DNA from: a virus
DNA: 27,204 nucleotides
Strand: one strand, 5' to 3'
Virus genome (UHGV): UHGV-0165622
The notes below the pieces were generated by a model. That model was not told where the DNA came from. It searched no databases and saw nothing but the letters and a program-made list of their open reading frames with translations. A program made the position numbers and the translations under genes. Position 1 is the stretch's first letter; every line of letters starts with the position of its first letter. This document shows positions 3,629 to 15,496 of the stretch, piece after piece.

Positions 3629-3650
3629 AACCCGCTTCGGCGGGTTTTTG
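3629..3650 (+). terminator. Rho-independent terminator after hok
   Basis: Hairpin cccgc-ttcg-gcggg followed by a T5 run. Confidence 0.7.
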
Positions 3651-3661
3651 CATTAGTCTGG

Positions 3662-3690
3662 TTGACAAAAATAGAAAAATGCGAAAATAT
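3662..3690 (+). promoter_or_regulatory. Putative sigma70 promoter for the 3726-5460 cassette
   Basis: Perfect -35 TTGACA at 3662-3667, 17-nt spacer, weak -10-like AAATAT; AT-rich context. Confidence 0.3.
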
Positions 3691-3725
3691 GTGGTTTACG
3701 AATTCTAAAAAAAGCGAAACTTGAA

Positions 3726-4376
3726 ATGAATGAAAATCAGTTAGCTCCTTGTTGGGAATTTCAACCTTATCTTGCTGAAAACTATGTTCGCCACTTGTTG
3801 GCGGAGATCGCTAACGTACTTGAGCAGCTGTACTATCATAAGCACGCATTAGACAGCAACTGGTCTGAAGGTGTAAGGGCTTATGATTGGGTCAGAAATC
3901 ATCTTATTCAAAATGAAGATGCAATTCCTGGCCTTGAGATGATTTCCAAGGGGTTGGACTATGTAGTTGCTTTAAATAAAGTTCCGCTACAATTTACCAA
4001 AGATTGCATTAATAACCCCAAAAAGAAACATCGTCTGCGTCGAAATAAAGTAGAGTATGAGCAGCTCTCATTGTTTGGTGATGTTGAGGCTGAGCAAGAT
4101 ATTACATGGCGAGTCATAGCTGAGCCTTTTTTATCCGAAGAGGGCGATGGTGAATTAGAGTCCACACTGCCTCGTTGGGAGGTAGCTCTTGTTGGATTTA
4201 ATACTTATGGTGCTCAGATTAGTATAGTTTCTCATCAATCTACAGCATCGATGCCGCTTATGCCTCTTGATTATAACACACTCCCTGACGAAGCGGAGAT
4301 TAATAAGGTGCCTCTTCGTCGGCGTACGAAGGATAAAGATTTGGATGTGAGCAGTGATGGAACATCAGGTGAATAA
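3726..4376 (+). CDS. Unknown 216-aa protein, upstream partner of the HTH/Zn-peptidase gene (candidate toxin or effector)
   Basis: ORF with no motif I recognise; low-GC codon usage; 3' end overlaps the downstream gene by about 20 nt. Confidence 0.7.
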   Translation: MNENQLAPCWEFQPYLAENYVRHLLAEIANVLEQLYYHKHALDSNWSEGVRAYDWVRNHLIQNEDAIPGLEMISKGLDYVVALNKVPLQFTKDCINNPKKKHRLRRNKVEYEQLSLFGDVEAEQDITWRVIAEPFLSEEGDGELESTLPRWEVALVGFNTYGAQISIVSHQSTASMPLMPLDYNTLPDEAEINKVPLRRRTKDKDLDVSSDGTSGE

Positions 4377-5460
4377 CTTCACTGAGTATCGGGGTGATAA
4401 GCTCAAACTAGCGAGAATGGCTGTTGGGCTTTCTTGTGAAGAGTTAGCCGAAAAAATTGGCAAGACAAAGCAATTCGTTAGCAAACTGGAGAAGGGGTGC
4501 AGGCCATCGGAGCAATGTCTTGAGTTAATATCTTCAGCGCTTATGATTAAGTCCAGTTTTCTTTTTACTGAACGAAAATACGCTCTGGAAAGTGATGTCT
4601 GCCATTTTCGGAGTAAGAAGTCCAGGACTCAAACGCTGACTAATAGTGTATTGGCCAGGGCTGAGATTCTTAATATTATAATTTCTGCTGTTGAAGGTGA
4701 AATCGAATTTCCTGACGTTAACATACCGGAGCACCCAGGGGCTGAATTACTTACTCCGAATGATATTGAGCGAGTGGCAGAAGATTGTCGCCGTGCCTGG
4801 AATTTAGGTCTTGGCCCTATATCATCAATGGTTAAATTGGCGGAGAGTTTAGGGGTAATCGTTGCGCATGTTACGGGAGTCGATGATCGTGTTGATGCTT
4901 TTACTGTTCACAATAACAGGCCTGTTATCATCAGGAACAATGTTAAAAAAAGCATATGTAGATTTCGCTCTGATTTAGGTCATGAATTAGGGCATTTAGT
5001 AATGCATGAGGGCATAACGACAGGTGATAAACTTACGGAATCACAAGCCGATCACTTTTCGAGCGCCTTATTAGTTCCCAGGTTATCTTTCATTAAAGAA
5101 TTTCCACGAATACGAGGTAAGCAATTCGACTGGAATGCTCTGGTTGAATTTAAACTTAGATGGAAAATCAGCCTTAAAATGTGTATTTATCGAGCCAGCG
5201 CATTAGGCTTATTGACCCAGGAACAGGCAAGAACTGGCTATATGCATCTTAATTCCAGAGGGTATACGAGAGTTGAACCTGGTGATGAACTTTTGCGCCC
5301 TGAAGAACCCGGCATGCTGGCCGAGGCGATTGAAATGCTGGATGATGCAACCTGGCTAAGAATTCTTATGAAAACTGGCTTGAGCCAAGATTTAATTCGT
5401 GAGTTGTTCTCCATCAACAGACCTATTACAAATCCAAGAAATATTTTCCAGATTGTTTGA
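4354..5460 (+). CDS. HTH_XRE plus ImmA/IrrE-family (COG2856, M78-like) zinc metallopeptidase fusion protein
   Basis: N-terminal XRE helix-turn-helix (LSCEELAEKIGKTKQFVSKLEKGCRPS); HEXXH zinc motif HELGH at about 4979-4993 with downstream Glu; 368 aa; GTG/ATG start overlapping the upstream gene. Confidence 0.85.
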   Translation: MMEHQVNNFTEYRGDKLKLARMAVGLSCEELAEKIGKTKQFVSKLEKGCRPSEQCLELISSALMIKSSFLFTERKYALESDVCHFRSKKSRTQTLTNSVLARAEILNIIISAVEGEIEFPDVNIPEHPGAELLTPNDIERVAEDCRRAWNLGLGPISSMVKLAESLGVIVAHVTGVDDRVDAFTVHNNRPVIIRNNVKKSICRFRSDLGHELGHLVMHEGITTGDKLTESQADHFSSALLVPRLSFIKEFPRIRGKQFDWNALVEFKLRWKISLKMCIYRASALGLLTQEQARTGYMHLNSRGYTRVEPGDELLRPEEPGMLAEAIEMLDDATWLRILMKTGLSQDLIRELFSINRPITNPRNIFQIV

Positions 5461-5464
5461 GTAT

Positions 5465-5486
5465 ACCCGCTTCGGCGGGTTTTTTG
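5465..5486 (+). terminator. Rho-independent terminator after the cassette
   Basis: Same hairpin as at 3629-3650 (acccgcttcggcggg) followed by a T6 run. Confidence 0.7.
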
Positions 5487-5646
5487 TTTTTATTTTCAAC
5501 GTGTTTGAAGTTTTGGACGGTGCCAGAATAGAATCAAAAATACTTAAGTAGCGCGCAGGGATAAGAGGGATGGTCCCTTAAAGGGGAGAGCTAATTATCC
5601 GGAAGGATTCTGATGATGAACATCGAAGAACTGCGTAAAATTTTTT

Positions 5647-5865
5647 GTGAAGATGGCCTTCTATGCTGTGTGCGTTGAAAATGGAAATCTTGTTAGTCAT
5701 TACCGCATTATGTGTTTGCGAAAGAATGGGGCTGCGTTAATTAATTTTGTGGATGCTCGGGTCACGGACGGATTTATCTTGCGCGACGGTGAGTTTGTCA
5801 CTTCATTACAGGTATTGAAAGAGATCGGAATAAAAGCAGGCTTTTCAGCTTTTGCAGAAGAATAA
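5647..5865 (+). CDS. Rem-like small prophage protein (possibly frameshifted at its N-terminus)
   Basis: 72-aa ORF; an upstream ATG at 5613 in another frame (MMNIEELRKIF...) would join in-frame if the T6 run at 5640-5646 were T5, giving an 83-aa product. Confidence 0.5.
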   Translation: MKMAFYAVCVENGNLVSHYRIMCLRKNGAALINFVDARVTDGFILRDGEFVTSLQVLKEIGIKAGFSAFAEE

Positions 5866-5931
5866 ACTCATCTACAATCTTGCGCGGGGCTGAACTCCCG
5901 CTGAGTAACACCGTGCCACCGGAGAAAACCG

Positions 5932-7273: not shown

Positions 7274-7633
7274 ATGCTCATAGATTTGGTTTTACCTTAC
7301 CCGCCGACGGTGAACACTTACTGGCGACGCCGTGGCAGCACATATTTTATCTCGGAGGAGGGAAAGCGTTATCGCCGGGCTGTGGCGCTTATTGTTCGCC
7401 AGCAGCGGCTGAAATTAAGCCTGTCCGGAAGGCTGGCGATAAAGGTGATTGCAGAGCCACCGGATAAGCGTCGTCGCGACCTGGACAATATCCTGAAAGC
7501 ACCGCTGGATGCGCTGACGCATGCGGGAGTGTTAATGGACGATGAGCAGTTTGATGAAATCAATATTGTAGGTGGTCAGCCAGTATCTGGTGGACGGCTG
7601 GGTGTGAAGATTTACAAAATTGAGAGTGAGTGA
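7274..7633 (+). CDS. rusA: RusA-family Holliday junction resolvase
   Basis: 119 aa; conserved RusA residues (PPTVNTYW, RRRDLDN, DALT..GV..DD) and AAAGAGG Shine-Dalgarno. Confidence 0.85.
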   Translation: MLIDLVLPYPPTVNTYWRRRGSTYFISEEGKRYRRAVALIVRQQRLKLSLSGRLAIKVIAEPPDKRRRDLDNILKAPLDALTHAGVLMDDEQFDEINIVGGQPVSGGRLGVKIYKIESE

Positions 7634-8196
7634 GCGTAAATATGATATATCCGGAAATTACAGGCAAAAGCGGCGAGCATTTACGTCTAAAAACGCTGGA
7701 AGCAGTCTGGATCCAGGGGAAATTACGGATGTGGGGGCGGTGGTCGTATATTGGCGGCGGTAAGACGGGAAATATGTTCAACCAATTACTGACCTCTAAA
7801 AAGCTGACAAAAACGGCAATTAACGAGGCGCTCCGGAGGATGAAAAAAGCTGGTCTGGACAAACCTGAACTTGAGGCTTTTTTGCGGGATATGATCAACG
7901 GCAATCAAAAAAGCTGGCTGGCACATTGTACCGATTCAGAGGCGTTAATAATCGACAGGGTTATTGGTGAAGTCCTGGCAGGCTATCCCGGGCTGCTCAA
8001 TGTCCTGAGTCAGCGTTATGTGGGGCGGGGGATGACTAAGCGCAAAATGGCTGAACTGCTGAATGATGCACACCCGGAATGGAGTTTAAGAACCTGTGAA
8101 AGACGCATTGAGCATTGGCTAAAGGTGGCAGAATTTATTTTGTACAAACCAATGGTTATGGCTTTTGGTATAGAGAAAAAAGTTATTGCTTTTTGA
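7630..8196 (+). CDS. Putative late-gene antiterminator Q-like protein
   Basis: 188-aa ORF in the canonical Q position (after rusA, before the tR'-like terminator and lysis region); loose similarity to phage-21/DLP12-type Q from memory. Confidence 0.55.
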   Translation: MSVNMIYPEITGKSGEHLRLKTLEAVWIQGKLRMWGRWSYIGGGKTGNMFNQLLTSKKLTKTAINEALRRMKKAGLDKPELEAFLRDMINGNQKSWLAHCTDSEALIIDRVIGEVLAGYPGLLNVLSQRYVGRGMTKRKMAELLNDAHPEWSLRTCERRIEHWLKVAEFILYKPMVMAFGIEKKVIAF

Positions 8197-8272
8197 CGTA
8201 AAAACTGCTTCAATTCCGGTACGCTTCGCAAAGCTGTACCACGAGGCGAATAGCAGACATGGACATTTGAAA

Positions 8273-8298
8273 GAGCCCGCTTTTTGCGGGTTTTTTTA
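8273..8298 (+). terminator. tR'-like intrinsic terminator downstream of Q
   Basis: Hairpin agcccgc-ttttt-gcggg followed by a T7 run, placed as lambda tR' is. Confidence 0.55.
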
Positions 8299-8420
8299 TG
8301 CCTGAAAAACGGCACAGAACATTAAACGCGCTGGTGGTTGCGAATACCGGTCTTTCAGCTTGCTGGCTTTTCCGACAAGAGTTATTGGTATGTTACGTTA
8401 ACCAGAAAAGGGAAAAAGAC

Positions 8421-8618
8421 ATGCTAAAACAGCAGGATATGACCGAAACCGCCAGAGTGGTGTTTAATGAGTTAAGCGTCACCGAACCGGCGACAGTCGG
8501 GGAGATTGCACAGAATACTTACCTTTCACGCGAACGCTGCCAGTTAATACTGACCCAGCTTGTTATGGCGGGTCTGGCAGACTATCAGTTTGGTTGTTAC
8601 AGACACCTTCAGTCCTGA
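8421..8618 (+). CDS. Small putative winged-helix DNA-binding protein
   Basis: 65 aa; HTH-like segment TVGEIAQNTYLSRERCQLILTQLVMAGL; followed by hairpin ccttcag-tcc-tgaagg and a T-run. Confidence 0.4.
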   Translation: MLKQQDMTETARVVFNELSVTEPATVGEIAQNTYLSRERCQLILTQLVMAGLADYQFGCYRHLQS

Positions 8619-8987
8619 AGGCTTTTTTATTTGTGGTAAATGGGCGGCTGGTGGGTGTGGTGGTTGTTGCTTTCCCGTTGCTGAAAAAGAAAACGCCAGA
8701 CTGTTAGCCGGGTATCAGTTATCTGGAGAAATTTTTAAATACCTCACAATTCAGGCGGTTGACTGTTGTCTGGTTTGCGGGGAGTTTGTTAAAAGAAACT
8801 GGCATGGTGAATCCCCCTGTGCGGAGGGGCAATCAGCGAGTAGGTATATGGGATAATCGCGGATTCAGGTGCTGGTACTGAATTCACCGGGAGGCACCCG
8901 GCACCATGCAATGGCACATAGCGCCACTCTCCAGCCCCTCTCCGGAGGGGCTGTTTATATTGATTTTGTCAGATGTGAGTAAACTCC

Positions 8988-9323
8988 TTATGGACTTTGT
9001 TGTTTTAGTCCATAAGGACATATTTGCAGAGTGCAACGGTTATTAAAGCATTCATTCAATACGTTATCTGTATTTGTAGGACATTCCTGGCTGTTTTTGA
9101 TTAAATTCCAGAATGTTTTATTGAATGGTACTACGTTGTAAATGGTTAAAGGTAGCACTTTGTTATTGAGCATGATACCTGTGTGAGTCAGTGTAAATAT
9201 ACTTTCAGGAGGTAAGAAAGCATCCGATTGATACCAGATTATTAATTTTATTTTACTCCATATGACTGAAAAAGATATTCCGCATGATGGCTGGATAACT
9301 GTATCAATCACAATCCACTTCAT
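8988..9323 (-). CDS. Hypothetical Cys-containing protein in an AT-rich island, opposite strand to the late operon
   Basis: 111-aa ORF; good Shine-Dalgarno (AAGGAAA) upstream of the ATG on the minus strand; AT-rich composition unlike flanking phage genes; an 11-bp perfect inverted repeat (ccttatggact/agtccataagg) lies at its 3' end. Confidence 0.5.
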
Positions 9324-9568
9324 TTAGTTTCCTTGTTTATGTCTTGCTGGTGATGTTCTGAAAAGTATAAATGATATTTTTGAATGTAAACCATAGAGCA
9401 GAATTATTTTTCTGATGTTGTTTATTGTTTATTTAAATGCAGGGTGGTTTATATCTCGTCTTGTAGTTTATCCATGCATATCTGCTTGATGATGAGGTTT
9501 TTATTTAAGGTATGGTTTTGTGTTTTTTCTGTATTACATGTCAGGTATTTTAAAGAATTATTTTTCAG

Positions 9569-11545
9569 ATGGTGGAAAGAACCATGGCATTTAAACACTA
9601 TGATGTTGTCAGGGCGGCATCGCCGTCAGACCTTGCGAAACGACTGACACAAAAACTGAAGGAGGGGTGGCAGCCATTTGGCAGTCCGGTGGCCATCACG
9701 CCTTATACCCTGATGCAGGCCATTGCGGCGGAAGGTGATGTCACCACACCTGTGGTGGTGAAGCCGTCGGATGGAGAAGGCGCAGTTATCAGCACCACCA
9801 GCAACCCGGAGTATTACTTTGTTGTTGCCCTGGCCGGGCAGTCAAACGGTATGGCGTATGGTGAAGGGCTTCCGCTGCCGGAGACATATGACCGTCCGGA
9901 CCCGCGTATTAAACAGCTGGCGCGTCGCAGCACTGTCACGCCGGGTGGTGCGTCCTGTAACTACAATGACATTATTCCTGCGGACCACTGCCTGCATGAT
10001 GTTCAGGATTTGAGTAAGTTTTCACACCCGAAAGCCAGCGCAGCTCAGTATGGATGCGTGGGGCAGGGATTACATATCGCGAAGAAATTGTTGCCGTTTA
10101 TTCCGGCGAATGCCGGTATTCTTCTGGTTCCGTGCTGCCGTGGTGGTTCTGCATTTTTGGCGGGCGATGAAGGTACCTTCAGCGAATCCACCGGCGCAAG
10201 CGAGACCTCGGCACGCTGGGGTGTTGATAAGCCACTGTACAAGGACCTGCTTACCCGTACTCAGGCCGCACTGAAGGCCAACCCTAAAAATATTCTGCTT
10301 GCAGTGGTCTGGATGCAGGGCGAGTTTGATTTGAAACAGGGTGCATACGCCACTCAGCCGGGGCTGTTTGATTCCATGGTGGAAAAATATCGTTCTGACC
10401 TGTCGGAATTCGGAGGTCAGTGTCTCGGGGGCTCTCCGTCATCGGTTCCCTGGATTTGTGGCGACACGACCTACTACTGGAAGCAGACTTATTCTTCGCA
10501 ATACGATGCGGTGTATGGTGCATACAAGACGAAATCCGCAAAAAAAATCTTCTTTGTGCCGTTTATGACGGATGAAAACGGGCGAAATGTGGGTACCAAC
10601 GAGCCGTCAGAAGATCCGGATGTTGCGGATATTGGGTATTACGGAGCCGGTGGTCGAACGGACGCCAAAACCTGGACGACGGCCGACCGTAAAACGCATT
10701 TTGGATCATGGGCACGTCGTGGGATTATTTCCGACCGTCTGGCAACGGCGATTCTTGTGCATGCCGGGAGAAACGCTGAATTCATTACCGGAAAACAGCC
10801 TGATACGGTGAAGCCCACCGGACCTTCCGGTGAAGGTACGGAGAGAGAGCCGGAAGCCCCGGTCAGTAACCGAACCCTGATGAGTCTGCTGGCGTCCGGC
10901 GAAGACCTGGCATCACAGGGCTGGCGCTATTATCACAAACCGGCGAGCGGAGACAATGTTAACAAAAACATTGCTGAAGCGGTGGTCAGTGATGCGGGGG
11001 CTACGGGAGGTAAGGCCCTGCAACTGAATAAACCGGAAAACCACATCTGGTTTCTGGAGCATGATGCAGCCGGACAGGGAGTGGAGTTACTGAAGAAGGG
11101 GGGACGTGTGAGCGTACGGTTTAAGTTGCCGGGTTCACTGGTGCCGAATCAGTTTGCCCTGGGCATTTACTGGCAGTTGTCGTCCCTGCCGGAGGGAGTG
11201 ACGCTGGCAGAGGAAGGCAACGACATGCTGATGTCCTTCTTCCTGCAGACGGATGCGACGAACCTGAACGCGATGCACCACAAGAAGCCGAATGCGAAGC
11301 TGGATACGTTCGGGGTCTTTGATAACGGATGGCACACACTGGCTTTTGAGTTTGCCGGAAACAACAGCATTCAGGTGACGCCGGTACTGGATGAGAAACG
11401 GGGGACGCCGTTCACACTGGTGAAATCTCCGGCATCAGGGGCGGCGGACAAACTGCAACTGACAGGCATATCAAAGGCGGCGACATATACGCTGCTGATT
11501 GACAGTGTGAAGGTGGAAGTGAACAACGCGGACATCGCGGCATGA
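9569..11545 (+). CDS. nanS-p: Prophage sialate O-acetylesterase NanS-p-type protein (N-terminal DUF1737, SGNH/GQSN esterase core)
   Basis: 658 aa; N-terminus MAFKHYDVVRAASPSDLAKRL; esterase motif ALAGQSNGMAYGEG; sits where Stx phages carry the homologous gene between stx and the lysis cassette. Confidence 0.8.
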   Translation: MVERTMAFKHYDVVRAASPSDLAKRLTQKLKEGWQPFGSPVAITPYTLMQAIAAEGDVTTPVVVKPSDGEGAVISTTSNPEYYFVVALAGQSNGMAYGEGLPLPETYDRPDPRIKQLARRSTVTPGGASCNYNDIIPADHCLHDVQDLSKFSHPKASAAQYGCVGQGLHIAKKLLPFIPANAGILLVPCCRGGSAFLAGDEGTFSESTGASETSARWGVDKPLYKDLLTRTQAALKANPKNILLAVVWMQGEFDLKQGAYATQPGLFDSMVEKYRSDLSEFGGQCLGGSPSSVPWICGDTTYYWKQTYSSQYDAVYGAYKTKSAKKIFFVPFMTDENGRNVGTNEPSEDPDVADIGYYGAGGRTDAKTWTTADRKTHFGSWARRGIISDRLATAILVHAGRNAEFITGKQPDTVKPTGPSGEGTEREPEAPVSNRTLMSLLASGEDLASQGWRYYHKPASGDNVNKNIAEAVVSDAGATGGKALQLNKPENHIWFLEHDAAGQGVELLKKGGRVSVRFKLPGSLVPNQFALGIYWQLSSLPEGVTLAEEGNDMLMSFFLQTDATNLNAMHHKKPNAKLDTFGVFDNGWHTLAFEFAGNNSIQVTPVLDEKRGTPFTLVKSPASGAADKLQLTGISKAATYTLLIDSVKVEVNNADIAA

Positions 11546-11901
11546 TAAAAAAAGCCGCCAGCGGTAGGAATGGAAGCTGGCGGAGGTAATCCCAATGGAG
11601 AATGTAAAGAAAAGATGCTTTCGACATCAATCATTTCTAAATGAAAACAGTTCTCATTGTCAACCATAACGGTAAGAAATTATGACATTTATTCATCAGG
11701 TAATGCTGTACTTCTGTATGGCAGTCTGTGTTATGTATCTTCTTTCGGGTGGGTACAGGGCAGTGCGCGATTTCTGGCGCAGGCAGATTGATAAAAGGGC
11801 CGCTGAGAGAATCAGCGCCAGTCAGTCAGCCGGAAGCAAACCCGAAGATCCGCTCATTCCGTAGTCACTTTCTTGACAACACCTTTCAACGAGAAAATCC
11901 C

Positions 11902-12147
11902 ATGTCAGAAATCACATCCCTGGTCACTGCTGAGGCAGTGAAGGAAGTCCTGCGCTCTGAAGAAGTCCTGAGCGCACTGAAACAGAAACTCCGCCAGAAC
12001 CTTGAGTCGCGTCTTGATGCAGAAGTGGATGCCATTCTGGATGAGCTGCTGGGCGTACCAGCGGTTCCGGAGCCGGAAGGTATCGCGGGTGACGGGAGTG
12101 CTTCAGATGGCGGTGAACCCACACCTGACAGCGACATGATGATGTAA
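11902..12147 (+). CDS. Hypothetical acidic protein upstream of the holin
   Basis: 82-aa [25 protein letters not shown]... Confidence 0.45.
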
Positions 12148-12223
12148 GCCTGCGCAAGGGACCATCGGTGTGTGCCGGTGGTCTTTATATTGTTGTGAGC
12201 TTCCGGATAACGGGAGACGGGGT

Positions 12224-12439
12224 ATGTACCAGATGGAAAAAATCACAACAGGTGTGTCATACACCACGTCAGCGGTGGGAACGGGCTACTGGTTCCTGCA
12301 GTTGCTGGACAGGGTTTCCCCGTCTCAGTGGGCGGCAATAGGCGTGCTGGGGAGTCTGCTGTTTGGGCTGCTGACGTACCTGACTAACCTGTATTTCAAA
12401 ATCAAAGAGGACCGGCGTAAGGCGGCGCGGGGAGAGTAA
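12224..12439 (+). CDS. Holin (class II, dual-start MYQM), Stx-phage S type
   Basis: 71 aa; two hydrophobic helices, charged C-terminus [13 protein letters not shown]; dual Met start; GGGAGACGGGG Shine-Dalgarno. Confidence 0.85.
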
Positions 12440-12440
12440 A

Positions 12441-13334
12441 GTGATGAATAAAAAATATGAACTGGTTGTTAAGGGGATAAATAATTACGGGGATAAGGTT
12501 ACTGTTACTGTGAAGCCGGAAGGTGACGGGCAAGCGTCGCTGTTGTTGCCAGATGTGGCGATTAGTCTTGACCGTACTGAAGGTGCCACGCTGGAGTTTT
12601 ACGAAGCTGAGGCGAAAAAGCAGGCGAAGCAGTTTTTCATGGATGTTGCTGCCGGGTTATGTGAATGGAACGAACCGTTGCCGGAAAAGCGCCCCGTAAT
12701 TTTAGAGGCGCAGGATGTGTTGATAACCTACAAAGGAAAGCTACCGGGAAGAATTACTTGTTCTCTGAAGATGCCGCCGTCAACACTGCGGTCAGAAAAA
12801 GATGATGTTGAATCACGTATTGAAAAACTGGAGAGCTACGTCGTTGAGCTGAATAAGAAATGGTCGATATTGGTGCCTTCTGGCGATGAAAAGCAGTTTG
12901 CTGCGTTTGACGATTATTGTCGGAAAGTGATGAGCAGAAATCTCGCAGAGTGTTTCAGTATTCATAATGATAATTTCAGTGACCCGGAATGGGAGTGTAA
13001 CCGGCCATCCTTTGTTGTATCCGGTGATGCTGGGAAAATAACCATCTCAGAAAATGGGAAAGTAACACCTCCATCGCACCAGCACAGTGAGGAGCTCATT
13101 GAATTTGCCATTGATTACCTGAAGAACAATAAAAAGCAGGGGCTGATGAAGCGCGTTGGCCGTTGCATGGGATATCTTCAGGTAGCCGCTGAGATTGAAG
13201 CGCTGGCCAGTGGTGCTGATAAGGATGCAATTGTGCGGGAGGCTCTTCTTCGTGATTTTAATACTCCACCCTTTAAAAAAGTGCCGGCTTACTGGCTTCA
13301 TCCGGGGCTGACTTATCTTAAAGTGCGTATTTAG
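12441..13334 (+). CDS. Unknown 297-aa protein inserted between holin and endolysin
   Basis: ORF starts 2 nt after the holin stop with GGGGAGAG Shine-Dalgarno and ends 36 nt before the endolysin; no recognisable domain; lower GC than neighbours. Confidence 0.7.
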   Translation: MMNKKYELVVKGINNYGDKVTVTVKPEGDGQASLLLPDVAISLDRTEGATLEFYEAEAKKQAKQFFMDVAAGLCEWNEPLPEKRPVILEAQDVLITYKGKLPGRITCSLKMPPSTLRSEKDDVESRIEKLESYVVELNKKWSILVPSGDEKQFAAFDDYCRKVMSRNLAECFSIHNDNFSDPEWECNRPSFVVSGDAGKITISENGKVTPPSHQHSEELIEFAIDYLKNNKKQGLMKRVGRCMGYLQVAAEIEALASGADKDAIVREALLRDFNTPPFKKVPAYWLHPGLTYLKVRI

Positions 13335-13370
13335 TGGGCCAGGGACAGCGGCTGAATATTTAATATATCC

Positions 13371-13904
13371 ATGAACACCAAAATCAAATACGGCCTGTCG
13401 GCTGCCGTTCTGGCGCTGATTGCCGCTGGTGCGCCTGCGCCTGACATTCTCGACCAGTTTCTGGATGAAAAGGAAGGCAACCACACCACGGCATACCGTG
13501 ATGGTGCAGGTATCTGGACCATCTGCCGTGGTGCCATCATGGTGGATGGCAAACCTGTCGTTCCGGGCATGAAGTTGTCGAAGGAAAAATGCGACCAGGT
13601 TAACGCCATTGAGCGTGATAAGGCGCTGGCATGGGTGGAGAAAAACATCAAAGTGCCGCTGACCGAACCCCAGAAAGCGGGGATCGCGTCATTCTGTCCG
13701 TACAACATTGGTCCCGGTAAGTGTTTCCCGTCGACGTTTTACAGACGAATTAATGCTGGTGATCGAAAAGGTGCCTGCGAAGCGATTCGCTGGTGGATTA
13801 AGGACGGTGGCAGAGACTGCCGTATTCGTTCAAACAACTGTTACGGTCAGGTATCCCGTCGTGACCAGGAGAGCGCGCTGGCGTGCTGGGGTATCGACAG
13901 ATAA
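13371..13904 (+). CDS. SAR endolysin (phage lysozyme R, T4-lysozyme fold)
   Basis: 177 aa; N-terminal signal-anchor-release segment GLSAAVLALIAAGAPAP; catalytic region EGNHTTAYRDGAGIWTICRG typical of P21/933W R. Confidence 0.9.
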   Translation: MNTKIKYGLSAAVLALIAAGAPAPDILDQFLDEKEGNHTTAYRDGAGIWTICRGAIMVDGKPVVPGMKLSKEKCDQVNAIERDKALAWVEKNIKVPLTEPQKAGIASFCPYNIGPGKCFPSTFYRRINAGDRKGACEAIRWWIKDGGRDCRIRSNNCYGQVSRRDQESALACWGIDR

Positions 13905-14060
13905 GCAGAATATTTTGCTGAAAAATGAGGAATGGCCACGCGGGCGGATAACACGAAATCCTGCGAACTGGCGAAACGTAAGTGAATAAAAGTAAAAACC
14001 CCGTTTGTTGGCACCAAGCGAGGTTTTGTGTTTCTGACCTTGAGTAAGGCAAGGGAGAAC

Positions 14061-14243
14061 ATGGCGAAGTGTAAACGAATTCTGTTGAGGTTGACTATGA
14101 AAAATGGCCTTGAACTGAAAGCGCCTGTAACTGATGACATCAGCAGAGCACTGGCTTTTGCCATTAAGTGGGTGGCGGTCGGTGTTGCTGTGTCCCCGAT
14201 GCTGTATGGGCTGGCAAAACTGGTCATTGCGTTGAAATCGTGA
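14061..14243 (+). CDS. Small hypothetical protein between R and Rz
   Basis: 60-aa ORF with AGGGAGA Shine-Dalgarno; hydrophobic C-terminus. Confidence 0.3.
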
Positions 14244-14257
14244 AGGGAGGATTAAGC

Positions 14258-14389
14258 ATGTCAGACAAACTCATAACGCTGGCGAAGATCCTCTGTGTAA
14301 TTGTCGGCATTTCATTTTCACTAATGCTGGTTGCTCTTTTTCTTTCCATGGCCTGGATGATGTTGTCTTCGTCGGGGTTGCTGGGGTGA
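14258..14389 (+). CDS. Small hydrophobic peptide (43 aa, not in ORF track)
   Basis: Strong Shine-Dalgarno GAAGGGAGG 7 nt upstream of ATG; single predicted transmembrane helix; stop overlaps Rz start. Confidence 0.3.
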
Positions 14390-14859
14390 ACATAAACCGA
14401 ATGCTTTCCGCGTTTATCGTTATTCTGCTGGTGGCCTGTGGTGCGCTGTGGATGGCAACAGACCATTACCGTGATAACGCGATTACCTACAAAGCGCAGC
14501 GCGATAACAAAGCCAGTGAACTGAAGCTGGCGAACGCAACCATTACTGATATGCAGGTGCGCCAGCGCGATGTTGCTGCGCTCGATGCAAAATACTCGAG
14601 GGAATTAGCCGATGCGAGAGCTGAAAATGAAACTCTTCGCGCTGACGTTGCCGCTGGTCGTAAGCGCCTGCGGATCAACGCCACCTGTCCAGGCTCCGTG
14701 CGTGAAGCCCCCACCACCTCCGGCGTGGATAATGCAACCGGCCCCCAACTGGCAGACACCGTTACACGGGATTATTTCACCCTCAGAGAGCGGCTGATGA
14801 CGATGCACAAGCAACTGGAAGGGGCACAGGACTATATCCGCACTCAGTGCCTGAAATAA
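14386..14859 (+). CDS. Rz inner-membrane spanin (i-spanin)
   Basis: 157 aa; N-terminal TM helix then [15 protein letters not shown] coiled-coil region typical of Rz; GTG start. Confidence 0.8.
14627..14797 (+). CDS. Rz1 outer-membrane lipoprotein spanin (o-spanin), embedded in the +1 frame of Rz
   Basis: Lipobox LVVSAC followed by a proline-rich segment (PPPPPAW), fully nested within Rz. Confidence 0.7.
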
Positions 14860-15169
14860 GTTTTGTTGATGCGCCGTATCGTCGCTATATTCCCTCATTA
14901 ACAGAGACCGCAGCCCGACAGGGAGACTCCTCTGCGCGAGTGTGCGGGGATAATTAAAAACGATGCACACCGGGTTTTTACCGCGTTAATGATTCGCGGG
15001 TTTATCCCGGTGCGATGGTGGAAGAAACAGGAAGCTGTATTACAGAAAGTGCTACTACTGTATCCCGATGCGATGTATGTAATGTGAGTCAGATAATGGC
15101 ACAGGATGTGGTGATGTGGCAGTCTGGAACACAGGATATATTGTCAGAATAAGACCCGTAGGAATAAAA

Positions 15170-15496
15170 ATGAAAAGACGCCTTTTACTACTTTTTCTGT
15201 TATCTGTCCTGGCAGTGGGATGCTCGCAGCAAAAAGCTGATGAGCCCCGGCAATTAGTGACGGTGTATCCACGATATCCGGAATATGCTGCAGCAAATTA
15301 TATCAAGGGGCTGGTTGAGGTTAAGTTCGATATTGGTGCTGATGGGACTGTGACACGGATCGTTTTTCTCCGCTCAGAGCCTCATAATTTGTTTCGTGAT
15401 GAAGTGGTGAAGGCCATGGCGAAATGGCGATTTGAAAAGAATCGCCCCTGTCAGGGAGTGAAGAGACAATTTATCTTTACGCCGTCACGTCCTTGA
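15170..15496 (+). CDS. Lipoprotein with TonB C-terminal-like domain (moron in the bor slot)
   Basis: 108 aa; signal peptide with lipobox LAVGC; YPRYPEYAAANYIKGLVEVKFDIGADGTV resembles the TonB C-terminal domain; Shine-Dalgarno AGGA upstream. Confidence 0.6.
   Translation: MKRRLLLLFLLSVLAVGCSQQKADEPRQLVTVYPRYPEYAAANYIKGLVEVKFDIGADGTVTRIVFLRSEPHNLFRDEVVKAMAKWRFEKNRPCQGVKRQFIFTPSRP

Follow-up and report, generated by a model that had tools for sequence, protein, structure and literature searches.

Does a nanS-p-type esterase gene in a prophage that lacks Shiga toxin genes mark that prophage as a relative of Stx phages, and what would such an enzyme do for its carrier? These questions arise from a stretch of 27,204 nucleotides of viral DNA (UHGV virus genome UHGV-0165622), referred to here as the window, in which such a gene was found without stx. 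The initial annotation placed this esterase typically downstream of stx in Stx prophages and described the backbone as toxin-less and Stx-phage-like. It suggested that the prophage either preceded an Stx-phage lineage or descended from one, and that the esterase is selected independently of the toxin. In this study, the window gene proved to be real, ordinary, and already known, adding a further allele to a mosaic family that has been described before.

The esterase gene and its late-region setting

The window ORF listing contains a plus-strand ORF of 658 codons at 9569-11545, and the GQSN motif and DUF1737 domain that had been read in it are both present (Table 1). The start, in contrast to the earlier reading, was corrected. 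Homologue N-termini in the alignment all read MAFKHYD, MTFKHYD, or MSIKHYD; the second ATG is the PGAP start in near-identical genes, including one that is 99.9% identical; and a Shine-Dalgarno-like run, GGTGGAAAG, lies upstream of this ATG. Because these observations agree, translation most likely begins at this second ATG (9584), which gives a protein of 653 aa. An identical protein appears in 2948 collection blocks, and the 90%-identity cluster has 3518 members.

Table 1. Features of the window from the Q-like gene to the end of the lysis cassette
Feature	Position	Strand	Basis or remark
Q-like late antiterminator (DUF1133, weak Phage_antitermQ match)	7630..8196	+	Pfam
GC hairpin then T7 run, just 3' of Q	8273..8299	+	Read from the sequence by eye; automated scan did not list the hairpin
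IraM/IraL-family anti-adaptor gene	8988..9323	-	NCBIfam NF007393, 161 bits vs cutoff 121; named by PGAP
nanS-p-type sialate O-acetylesterase gene	9584..11545	+	653 aa from likely start; longest ORF from 9569 = 658 aa
DUF1737, N-terminal	9590..9733, aa 8-55	+	Pfam E 9.5e-16; short-loop variant
NanS-like SGNH/SASA catalytic esterase domain	9800..10756	+	3PT5 match E 1.5e-118 over aa 78-396
GQSN, presumed Ser nucleophile	9836-9847	+	G85-Q86-S87-N88 (653-aa numbering)
WMQGE	10310-10324	+	W243-M244-Q245-G246-E247
Conserved His in THF	10694-10702	+	H372
Lectin-like jelly-roll C-terminal domain, DUF6645, 6YP6-like	10973..11527	+	6YP6 E 1.3e-60
Lysis cassette downstream of nanS-p, DUF1378 first	11682..14859	+	Pfam
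DUF826, between DUF1378 and holin	within 11682..14859	+	Pfam
P21-type holin	12170/12224-12439	+	Pfam
DUF1327/YdfR-like ORF	12441-13334	+	Pfam
Lysozyme	13371-13904	+	Pfam
Rz	14386-14859	+	Pfam

The Pfam scores for the three esterase domains are far above chance. Besides the N-terminal DUF1737, SASA matches aa 88-279 (E 6e-9) and DUF6645 matches aa 508-621 (E 2e-43). Additionally, the protein matches the solved structures of NanS/YjhS (3PT5) and of the NanS-p C-terminal domain (6YP6). GQSN, WMQGE, and H372 are invariant across a 9-sequence alignment that includes chromosomal NanS; this alignment and the trees cover five reference alleles and four database clusters, rather than the full set of seven EDL933 paralogues. 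The phylogeny and alignment, the Pfam matches, and the structure matches place the protein with NanS-p, as the initial annotation had proposed, and the window gene reads as an intact NanS-p-family sialate O-acetylesterase, not an unrelated SGNH enzyme. No signal peptide or transmembrane segment was found in the protein; its N-terminus, MAFKHYDVVRAASPSDLAKR, is hydrophilic, and the maximum Kyte-Doolittle 19-residue score over the whole protein is 1.38.

Purifying selection acts on all three domains. Compared with Stx1-phage and O157 non-Stx alleles, dN/dS per domain is 0.10-0.37, with 0.11-0.15 for the catalytic domain and 0.10-0.13 for DUF1737, the strongest constraint among the three, and all these values are approximate because dS is near saturation (1.1-2.0).

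The gene is placed between the DUF1133 Q-like gene and the holin, lysozyme, and Rz genes. The Q-like protein belongs to a family that differs from the Q of 933W and BP-4795. One O157:H7 genome carries the Q module, at 96% identity, in the late region of a prophage without stx, and a query with 7630-9583 gave 11-12 matching places in O157:H7 genomes. The hairpin and T7 run behind Q appear to occupy the expected tR' position. Between Q and nanS-p, the slot holds one small ORF and the minus-strand iraM-like gene, which sits in a GC island (30-34%). In Stx phages, the place of this IraM/IraL-like gene in the cargo slot is taken by stxAB. Downstream, the same lysis-cassette gene order is present in BP-4795, PhiR12, and loci L005 to L011. 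The head belongs to the lambda/21 type, with genes for gpE and gpD, and the major capsid protein is 99% identical to that of phage 21.

Predicted role of the esterase

We consider it very probable that the window gene is late-region cargo of an unexceptional lambdoid prophage without stx, inserted between Q and the lysis cassette, and that its product is a sialate O-acetylesterase of the NanS-p family, which would be released by lysis and free Neu5Ac. The function is predicted from homologues at 60-65% identity, namely 933W Z1466/p42, other NanS-p proteins of EDL933 and O104:H4, and phi24B gp84. On induction, nanS-p would be transcribed from a Q-dependent late promoter; z1466 is induced as a late gene (PMC8065619). 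Because a simple scan of 7600-12500 gave no sigma-70-like promoter on the plus strand, this late promoter is placed by analogy alone. Because a signal peptide is absent, the enzyme would exit only at phage lysis, either free or virion-bound through DUF1737. The SGNH-type active site, formed by the Ser of GQSN and the conserved His, would strip Neu5,9Ac2 on mucin glycans of its 9-O-acetyl groups. Targeting of the enzyme to carbohydrate is a probable role of the C-terminal lectin-like domain. The freed Neu5Ac could be used by surviving lysogens via the core nanATEK pathway; the esterase would be a shared benefit, with its cost borne by the induced subpopulation. Q, a variable cargo slot, nanS-p, and the lysis genes form a freely recombining module; the slot accepts several alternative cargoes, stx being only one of them, and in the window it carries the IraM/IraL-like gene.

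The benefit of the esterase could also go to the phage instead of the host. A possible but doubtful reading is that the window esterase is mainly a virion component, with DUF1737 docking on capsid hexons in the manner of phi24B gp84. The esterase and lectin domains would then help the particle adhere to O-acetylated sialomucin or travel through it, or would alter acetylated glycans on the target-cell surface. Such a role is compatible with that of late-region cargo, and the two are not exclusive. The precedent comes from cryo-EM and proteomics of phi24B, where the DUF1737 of the NanS-p homologue gp84 is a hexameric, proteolytically processed capsid decoration (bioRxiv 10.64898/2026.04.10.717836). 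A Tyr of the window protein aligns with the hexon-pore-anchoring Tyr of gp84 (Tyr42 of 933W p42), and the strong constraint on DUF1737 points in the same direction. However, phi24B is a podovirus with a T=9 capsid, on which binding of the domain is confined to the face-centre hexons, and the window prophage encodes a lambda/21-type gpE capsid protein and a gpD decoration protein. T=7 capsids of the lambda/21 type are not known to have a face-centre hexon. Moreover, the Tyr-bearing loop is 3 aa shorter in the window protein, the SISSP processing motif is absent after the domain, and the short-loop variant is not bound to one head type.

The distribution of head types was followed in phage records. 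The window-type DUF1737 variant occurs in 74 of them, including Stx2c, 1717, 2851, and BP-4795-type phages, and a lambda-gpE-type capsid protein occurs in 124; the two overlap only in 10 Stx1a phages and in PhiR12/PhiR5. The idea that the DUF1737 variant tracks capsid type, which would have carried the phi24B capsid-binding result further, was rejected, as the records show no simple one-to-one relation. At least two clearly distinct head types, and probably a third, are found together with NanS-p. It is conceivable, though unlikely, that DUF1737 makes NanS-p a head-type-independent decoration, used on gpD-bearing lambda/21-type T=7 capsids as well as on T=9 phi24B capsids, in which case NanS-p would be a device, widespread among temperate coliphages, for adhering to mucus, and not a host-benefit gene. 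If true, this role could explain why ~42% of complete E. coli genomes keep nanS-p, in up to 8 copies, regardless of stx.

Very unlikely, in our assessment, is an alternative substrate, whereby the enzyme acts not on free or mucin-bound Neu5,9Ac2 but on another O-acetylated glycan, such as the LPS O-antigen or capsular polysialic acid, and helps the phage to adsorb or to control superinfection. Over the catalytic segment aa 251-395, identity is only 60-65% to the assayed alleles and 43% to NanS, and because of this divergence the substrate preference could differ from that of the assayed alleles. The C-terminal lectin-like domain has also diverged from these alleles (47-57% identity), and LPS de-O-acetylation has been raised as an open possibility in a review (PMC8065619). 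However, every member of the diverse set of NanS-p alleles tested so far cleaves Neu5,9Ac2 and removes O-acetyl groups from mucin (PMC8065619), and the core catalytic motifs of the window protein are the same as those of NanS.

Relation of the prophage to Stx phages

The window contains no stx or stx remnants, and the description "toxin-less" holds, as the best tblastn matches for StxA2 (E 0.38) and StxB2 (E 0.25) are at chance level. Similarly, ARAGORN found no tRNA genes in the window, including the ileZ-argN-argO set present in 933W upstream of the toxin slot; these tRNAs are not Stx-phage-specific because the non-Stx prophages L005 and L006 carry them. For the backbone, the non-Stx phages PhiR12/PhiR5 cover 55-59% of the window at 93-95% identity, and phage 21 covers 42% at 91% identity, whereas no Stx phage covers more than 26%, at 86% identity. 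As judged by these matches, the carrier is a common stx-free lambda-like E. coli prophage with a phage-21/lambda-type head and tail. Only the generic lambdoid late region is left of the proposed Stx-phage-like backbone, which is otherwise nearest to PhiR12, PhiR5, and phage 21. In the synteny comparison, the order of nanS-p, DUF1378, DUF826, P21-type holin, YdfR/DUF1327, lysozyme, and Rz does match that of BP-4795, an Stx1 phage, and patches of the DNA are 75-95% identical, but the same layout exists in non-Stx phages and prophages.

The allele itself is only 60-65% identical to any Stx-phage NanS-p, and the best allele among the phage records reaches at most 65%. Its DUF1737 variant is shared with Stx1a and Stx2c phages at 93-98%, and its C-terminus, a distinct variant, recurs at 91-98% in many E. 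coli alleles that resemble Stx-phage alleles in their N-terminal and catalytic parts. The domain trees of NanS-p alleles are incongruent. Furthermore, in one recombinant allele (P0002), aa 1-250 are 933W-type and aa 251-653 window-type, and in another (P0034), the N-terminus and catalytic domain are BP-4795-type and the C-terminus window-type. From these alignments, the nanS-p gene presents as a domain mosaic, with recombination breakpoints predicted near aa 55-75, about 250, and about 395-465.

Among the 5426 complete E. coli genomes, 2301 (~42%) carry nanS-p-like DNA, in 5004 copies and with up to 8 per genome, versus 602 genomes with stx2 and 349 with stx1 (together 1103 places). On these numbers, at least ~78% of the copies would be expected to lack stx within 3 kb. 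The exact window protein follows three or more distinct Q/cargo arrangements and goes with two packaging modules, which have different terminases. Its upstream modules include methylase-TerB-DUF3927 and DUF3927-IraM, and in the contexts inspected it was never beside stx. In a non-Stx prophage of O157:H7 that carries the Q type of the window, the order is tRNAs-TerB-DUF3927-esterase. The genome counts, together with dN/dS values of 0.1-0.25, support the earlier proposal that the esterase is kept independently of stx, an independence already published between 2013 and 2023 (PMC3658417, PMC10462455, PMC8065619). Activity and growth phenotypes have been reported for NanS-p from both Stx and non-Stx prophages (PMC8065619, PMC10462455). 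Finding NanS-p apart from Shiga toxin is usual and has been documented before; the notion that the gene typically lies downstream of stx is an effect of which phages were sequenced, as about two thirds of the NanS-p-bearing phage records are named Stx phages.

That the prophage derives from an Stx phage by loss of stx, or is a direct precursor yet to gain it, is highly improbable: the gene order shared with BP-4795, the shared DUF1737 variant, and the recombinant alleles, which represent exchange between the window allele and Stx-phage alleles, speak for such an origin, but the absence of stx and ileZ-argN-argO remnants, the Q of another family, the low coverage by Stx phages, the diverged esterase, the same stx-free layout in other stx-less prophages and phages, and the great excess of nanS-p over stx copies in E. 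coli all speak against it. Moreover, an "Stx-phage lineage" is not a coherent clade because lambdoid phages are mosaics.

A "virulence-phage" gene found apart from the toxin does not signal a decayed or nascent Stx phage, and the present result provides a calibration point. As cargo of lambdoid prophages in E. coli, nanS-p ranks among the commonest genes. The slot ahead of it can be filled interchangeably, with stx, iraM/iraL-like, methylase, or TerB genes among the cargoes. The general interest of the esterase lies in access to O-acetylated mucin sialic acid and possibly in phage adherence to mucus.

Comparison with known NanS-p systems

[quoted passage not shown] The catalytic motifs, the lack of a signal peptide, and the position from Q to lysis in a lambdoid phage are all as in the window. 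The overall identity is 60-64% (DUF1737 65%, linkers 10-30%, catalytic 61-82%, C-terminus 57%). In contrast to these alleles, the window esterase has neither stxAB nor tRNAs in front of it, and its DUF1737 differs in the loop and motif described above. The carriers also differ, the window being a lambda/21-type long-tailed phage and the 933W type short-tailed.

The NanS-p of the Stx1 phage BP-4795 (ORF43, "yjhS") has the same DUF1737 variant as the window, at 93% identity, and in both cases the gene is followed by DUF1378 - ORF - holin - YdfR - lysozyme - Rz. In contrast, the catalytic domain is 61-84% and the C-terminus 57% identical, and stx1AB lies directly upstream in BP-4795. The non-Stx lambda-like phages PhiR12/PhiR5, with a 660-aa esterase, are stx-free and have the Q - slot - esterase - lysis order of the window. 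For PhiR12, the head and tail module is ~94% and DUF1737 96% identical to the window, while the remainder of the esterase has diverged (catalytic 63-76%, C-terminus 47%). The same stx-free order is found in the non-Stx prophage of O157:H7 SS TX 754-1, whose 616-aa esterase is 55% identical overall.

Finally, the chromosomal NanS (YjhS) of E. coli (3PT5) has a homologous catalytic fold and motifs; across the catalytic domain, the identity is 43-67%, depending on the segment. The NanR-regulated nanCMS operon encodes NanS as a periplasmic protein, which is not known to be phage-borne. NanS represents the "short" form, without both flanking domains (PMC3658417).

Identity of the esterase and its setting

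The features that the initial annotation had ascribed to the esterase, namely, an ORF of 658 codons, a GQSN motif and a DUF1737-like N-terminus, are all present, and this observation is correct far beyond chance. The true start, however, is likely at nt 9584, giving a product of 653 aa instead of 658 aa, because the N-terminus of every homologue reads MAFKHYD, MTFKHYD or MSIKHYD, PGAP annotations of near-identical genes begin with the second ATG, and this ATG is directly preceded by GGTGGAAAG. Additionally, the protein matches the solved structures of the E. coli NanS/YjhS catalytic domain (3PT5; aa 78-396, E 1.5e-118) and the NanS-p C-terminal domain (6YP6; aa 469-653, E 1.3e-60). RefSeq WP_016244528.1, which is 99.8% identical, is annotated as a SASA family carbohydrate esterase.

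Features of the esterase and of the surrounding prophage
Feature	Position	Strand	Remarks
Insertion	nt 3649-5914		2.27 kb
First insertion ORF	nt 3726-4376	+	216 aa; PADLOC RmrT match, E 4.6e-25
Second insertion ORF	nt 4354-5460	+	368 aa; HTH_3 and Peptidase_M78; RmrA match, E 6e-105
DUF968, then RusA genes			5' of the Q-like gene
DUF1133 Q-like antiterminator	nt 7630-8196
GC hairpin and T7	nt 8273-8299		~75 nt 3' of the Q-like gene, at the expected tR' position; missed by automated scan
Small ORF	nt 8406-8603	+
Hairpin, 9 bp, 7 GC pairs	nt 8932-8953		Between the small + strand ORF and the 3' end of the iraM-like gene; could be a terminator for both strands
IraM/IraL-family gene	nt 8988-9323	-	In a 30-34% GC island
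nanS-p	nt 9569-11545	+	After the IraM/IraL-family gene in the gene order, 5' of DUF1378
GQSN motif	nt 9836-9847
DUF1737 domain	aa 8-55	+	Pfam E 9.5e-16
SASA (sialic-acid-specific acetylesterase) domain	aa 88-279	+	Pfam E 6e-9
DUF6645 domain	aa 508-621	+	Pfam E 2e-43
DUF1378, DUF826, P21-type holin, DUF1327/YdfR-like ORF, lysozyme, Rz			In this order 3' of nanS-p
DUF1327/YdfR-like ORF	nt 12441-13334	+	297 aa; between the holin and lysozyme genes
TonB_C ORF	nt 15116-15496	+	126 aa; Pfam TonB C-terminal domain, E 1e-12
Phage-21-type terminase, portal, gpD-like decoration protein, gpE-like capsid protein, tail genes			3' of the TonB_C ORF

We aligned nine sequences: the window protein, 933W p42 (Stx2a phage), BP-4795 ORF43 (Stx1 phage), the esterase of the non-Stx phage PhiR12, four E. 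coli database clusters and chromosomal NanS. G-Q-S-N, W-M-Q-G-E, C-G-D-T-T, E-D-P-D and the His of the THF motif are invariant in all of them. No signal peptide or membrane segment was found in the window esterase (maximum KD19 of 1.38). In the catalytic-domain tree rooted on NanS, the phage alleles form a single clade that includes the window allele, yet the latter lies outside the tight 933W/BP-4795 cluster. The NanS-p type is thus borne out, as this phylogeny, set beforehand as the refutation test, gave no grouping with unrelated SGNH esterases. When the Stx1-phage allele and a non-Stx O157 allele serve as references, DUF1737 has a dN/dS of 0.10-0.13, the catalytic domain one of 0.11-0.15 and the C-terminal domain one of 0.24-0.37; these ratios point to purifying selection on all three domains, with dS near saturation. 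Collectively, the window protein is a NanS-p-family member that shows all testable defining features, and by analogy it would be an active esterase.

A prophage of E. coli Ecol_745 is 99.4% identical to the window from 5915 to its end. Relative to this prophage, the window carries an insertion just past the hokD region, the two ORFs of which resemble a Rosmer-type anti-phage defence pair and would be prophage cargo. In the slot where Stx phages carry stxAB, the window has a gene for an RssB anti-adaptor of the IraM/IraL family (NCBIfam NF007393; 161 bits, cutoff 121). It runs antisense to the late operon and lies within an AT-rich island at about 8950-9560. This gene may be of the iraL type known in UPEC CFT073 (PMC4045071); if so, RpoS would be stabilised by it in lysogens. 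Moreover, the DUF1327/YdfR match of the ORF between holin and lysozyme is restricted to the first ~100 aa, and the C-terminal ~200 aa gave no family match; YdfR-like proteins in other prophages have ~116 aa, and the Ecol_745 counterpart is a truncated pseudogene according to PGAP. The TonB_C ORF, which follows Rz and precedes the small terminase subunit gene, is a second cargo-like gene of the late region; Ecol_745 and a further compared locus (L010) have it as well.

Relationship to Stx phages

The initial annotation placed the esterase on a toxin-less Stx-phage-like backbone. In a comparison of window positions 3000-27204 with 50,697 phage records, the non-Stx phages PhiR12 and PhiR5 (55-59% coverage, 93-95% identity) and phage 21 (42%, 91%) match best, while the best Stx phage reaches 26% coverage at 86% identity; the description therefore holds only in a generic lambdoid sense. 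Similarly, the gene order from nanS-p to Rz is identical to that of the Stx1 phage BP-4795, but it is equally shared with three stx-free contexts: PhiR12, a prophage of O157:H7 SS TX 754-1 (DUF1133 Q, HTH, tRNA-Ile, tRNA-Arg, TerB, DUF3927, a 616-aa esterase, holin) and strain DS566 (Q, tRNAs, DUF3927, IraM, then the same 653-aa esterase). The window contains no tRNA genes, and tblastn searches of it with StxA2 and StxB2 returned only chance matches (best E 0.38 and 0.25, respectively).

Among 5426 complete E. coli genomes, nanS-p-like DNA occurs in 2301, with 5004 places in total and as many as 8 in one genome. The window allele is found at full length in 369 genomes, and 226 records, ST131 among them, carry it at ≥99% identity. 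stx2 occurs at 743 places in 602 genomes and stx1 at 360 places in 349. Even with nanS-p beside every stx locus, at least 78% of the copies and at least 59% of the nanS-p-positive genomes would be stx-free; nanS-p without stx is the usual case in E. coli. The premise of a Stx-phage lineage reflects sampling bias, because approximately two thirds of the phage records with a NanS-p bear the name of a Stx phage, whereas most genomic copies are stx-free. Collectively, the window came out in every test as neither a Stx phage nor a Stx-phage remnant, and the proposal that it is a precursor or derivative of such a lineage is unsupported.

The suggestion that the esterase is selected independently of the toxin is correct, although it is not new. 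Long three-domain nanS copies, "invariably associated with prophage remnants", were reported in stx-negative EAEC, ExPEC and EPEC in 2013 (Vimr; PMC3658417, Table 3), and stx-negative occurrence was restated in 2021 and 2023 (PMC8065619, PMC10462455). The feature is real, ordinary and already known.

Proposed function and possible capsid docking

Domain architecture, intact catalytic motifs, lack of an export signal, purifying selection and late-operon position are direct observations. By analogy with characterised homologues, nanS-p would be transcribed from the late promoter upon induction, z1466 (933W p42) being one of the genes with the strongest induction (PMC8065619), and the esterase would be set free at lysis. 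It would then take O-acetyl groups off Neu5,9Ac2 and mucin glycans and allow E. coli growth on both; all seven NanS-p enzymes of EDL933 and five of O104:H4, among them the ones encoded by non-Stx prophages, were shown to act in this way (PMC8065619, PMC10462455). The C-terminal jelly-roll domain is a proposed carbohydrate binder.

DUF1737 might also dock the esterase on lambda-type capsids. In phi24B, DUF1737 decorates a T=9 capsid as a hexamer at the face-centre hexons, with proteolytic processing (2026 preprint, bioRxiv 10.64898/2026.04.10.717836). The window prophage, in contrast, has a lambda/21-type gpE and gpD head; the Tyr-bearing loop of its DUF1737 is shorter by 3 aa, and the protein lacks the SISSP motif. 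We rejected the idea that the DUF1737 variant tracks head type, as there is no one-to-one link: the window-type variant occurs in 74 phage records (Stx1a 24, Stx2c 17, Stx2-converting 11, plus PhiR12/PhiR5, 2851 and BP-4795) and the lambda-gpE-type capsid protein in 124, of which only 10 are Stx1a phages and none is a Stx2c phage.

Recombination around and within nanS-p

Within the assembly collection, 2948 blocks contain precisely this 653-aa protein. In the distinct contexts sampled, it is preceded either by a PF03589-type Q, DNA methylase, TerB and DUF3927, with HNH/Terminase_2 packaging, or by Q, DUF3927 and an IraM-like gene, and never by a toxin gene. The full Q-to-esterase arrangement of the window is common to only 52 genomes; a break lies near 8650, and the two parts that it separates, the Q half and the iraM-esterase half, undergo recombination independently of each other. 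The junction of iraM and esterase is found widely, in combination with several different Q modules. In four loci of other genomes (L007-L009, L011), the identical esterase accompanies a different antiterminator (PF03589), methylase-TerB-DUF3927 cargo and HNH plus Terminase_2 packaging. The block of esterase and lysis genes is thus mobile among phages whose head-packaging systems differ.

No phage-record protein is >65% identical to the window esterase, yet 3518 members make up the cluster of this esterase at 90% identity.

Identity of phage esterases to the window allele, by segment
Segment	933W	BP-4795	PhiR12
DUF1737	65%	93%	96%
Catalytic, aa 75-250	82%	84%	76%
Catalytic, aa 251-395	61%	61%	63%
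C-terminal domain	57%	57%	47%

In the database protein P0002, aa 1-250 are 933W-type (98-100% in the DUF1737 and catalytic segments) and the remainder from aa 251 is window-type (98-100%), placing a junction near aa 250. In P0034, a BP-4795-type N-terminus and catalytic domain (94-100%) pass near aa 395 into a window-type C-terminus (94-95%). Furthermore, comparison of window 9584-11545 with P0002, P0012, P0034 and P0061 revealed linker 1 (aa 56-74) as a separate hypervariable cassette, and the trees of the three nanS-p domains are incongruent. The database nanS-p alleles are clear intragenic recombinants. This domain mosaicism agrees with the mosaic of D/SASA/CTR variants described for Stx2a phages (PMC10462455).
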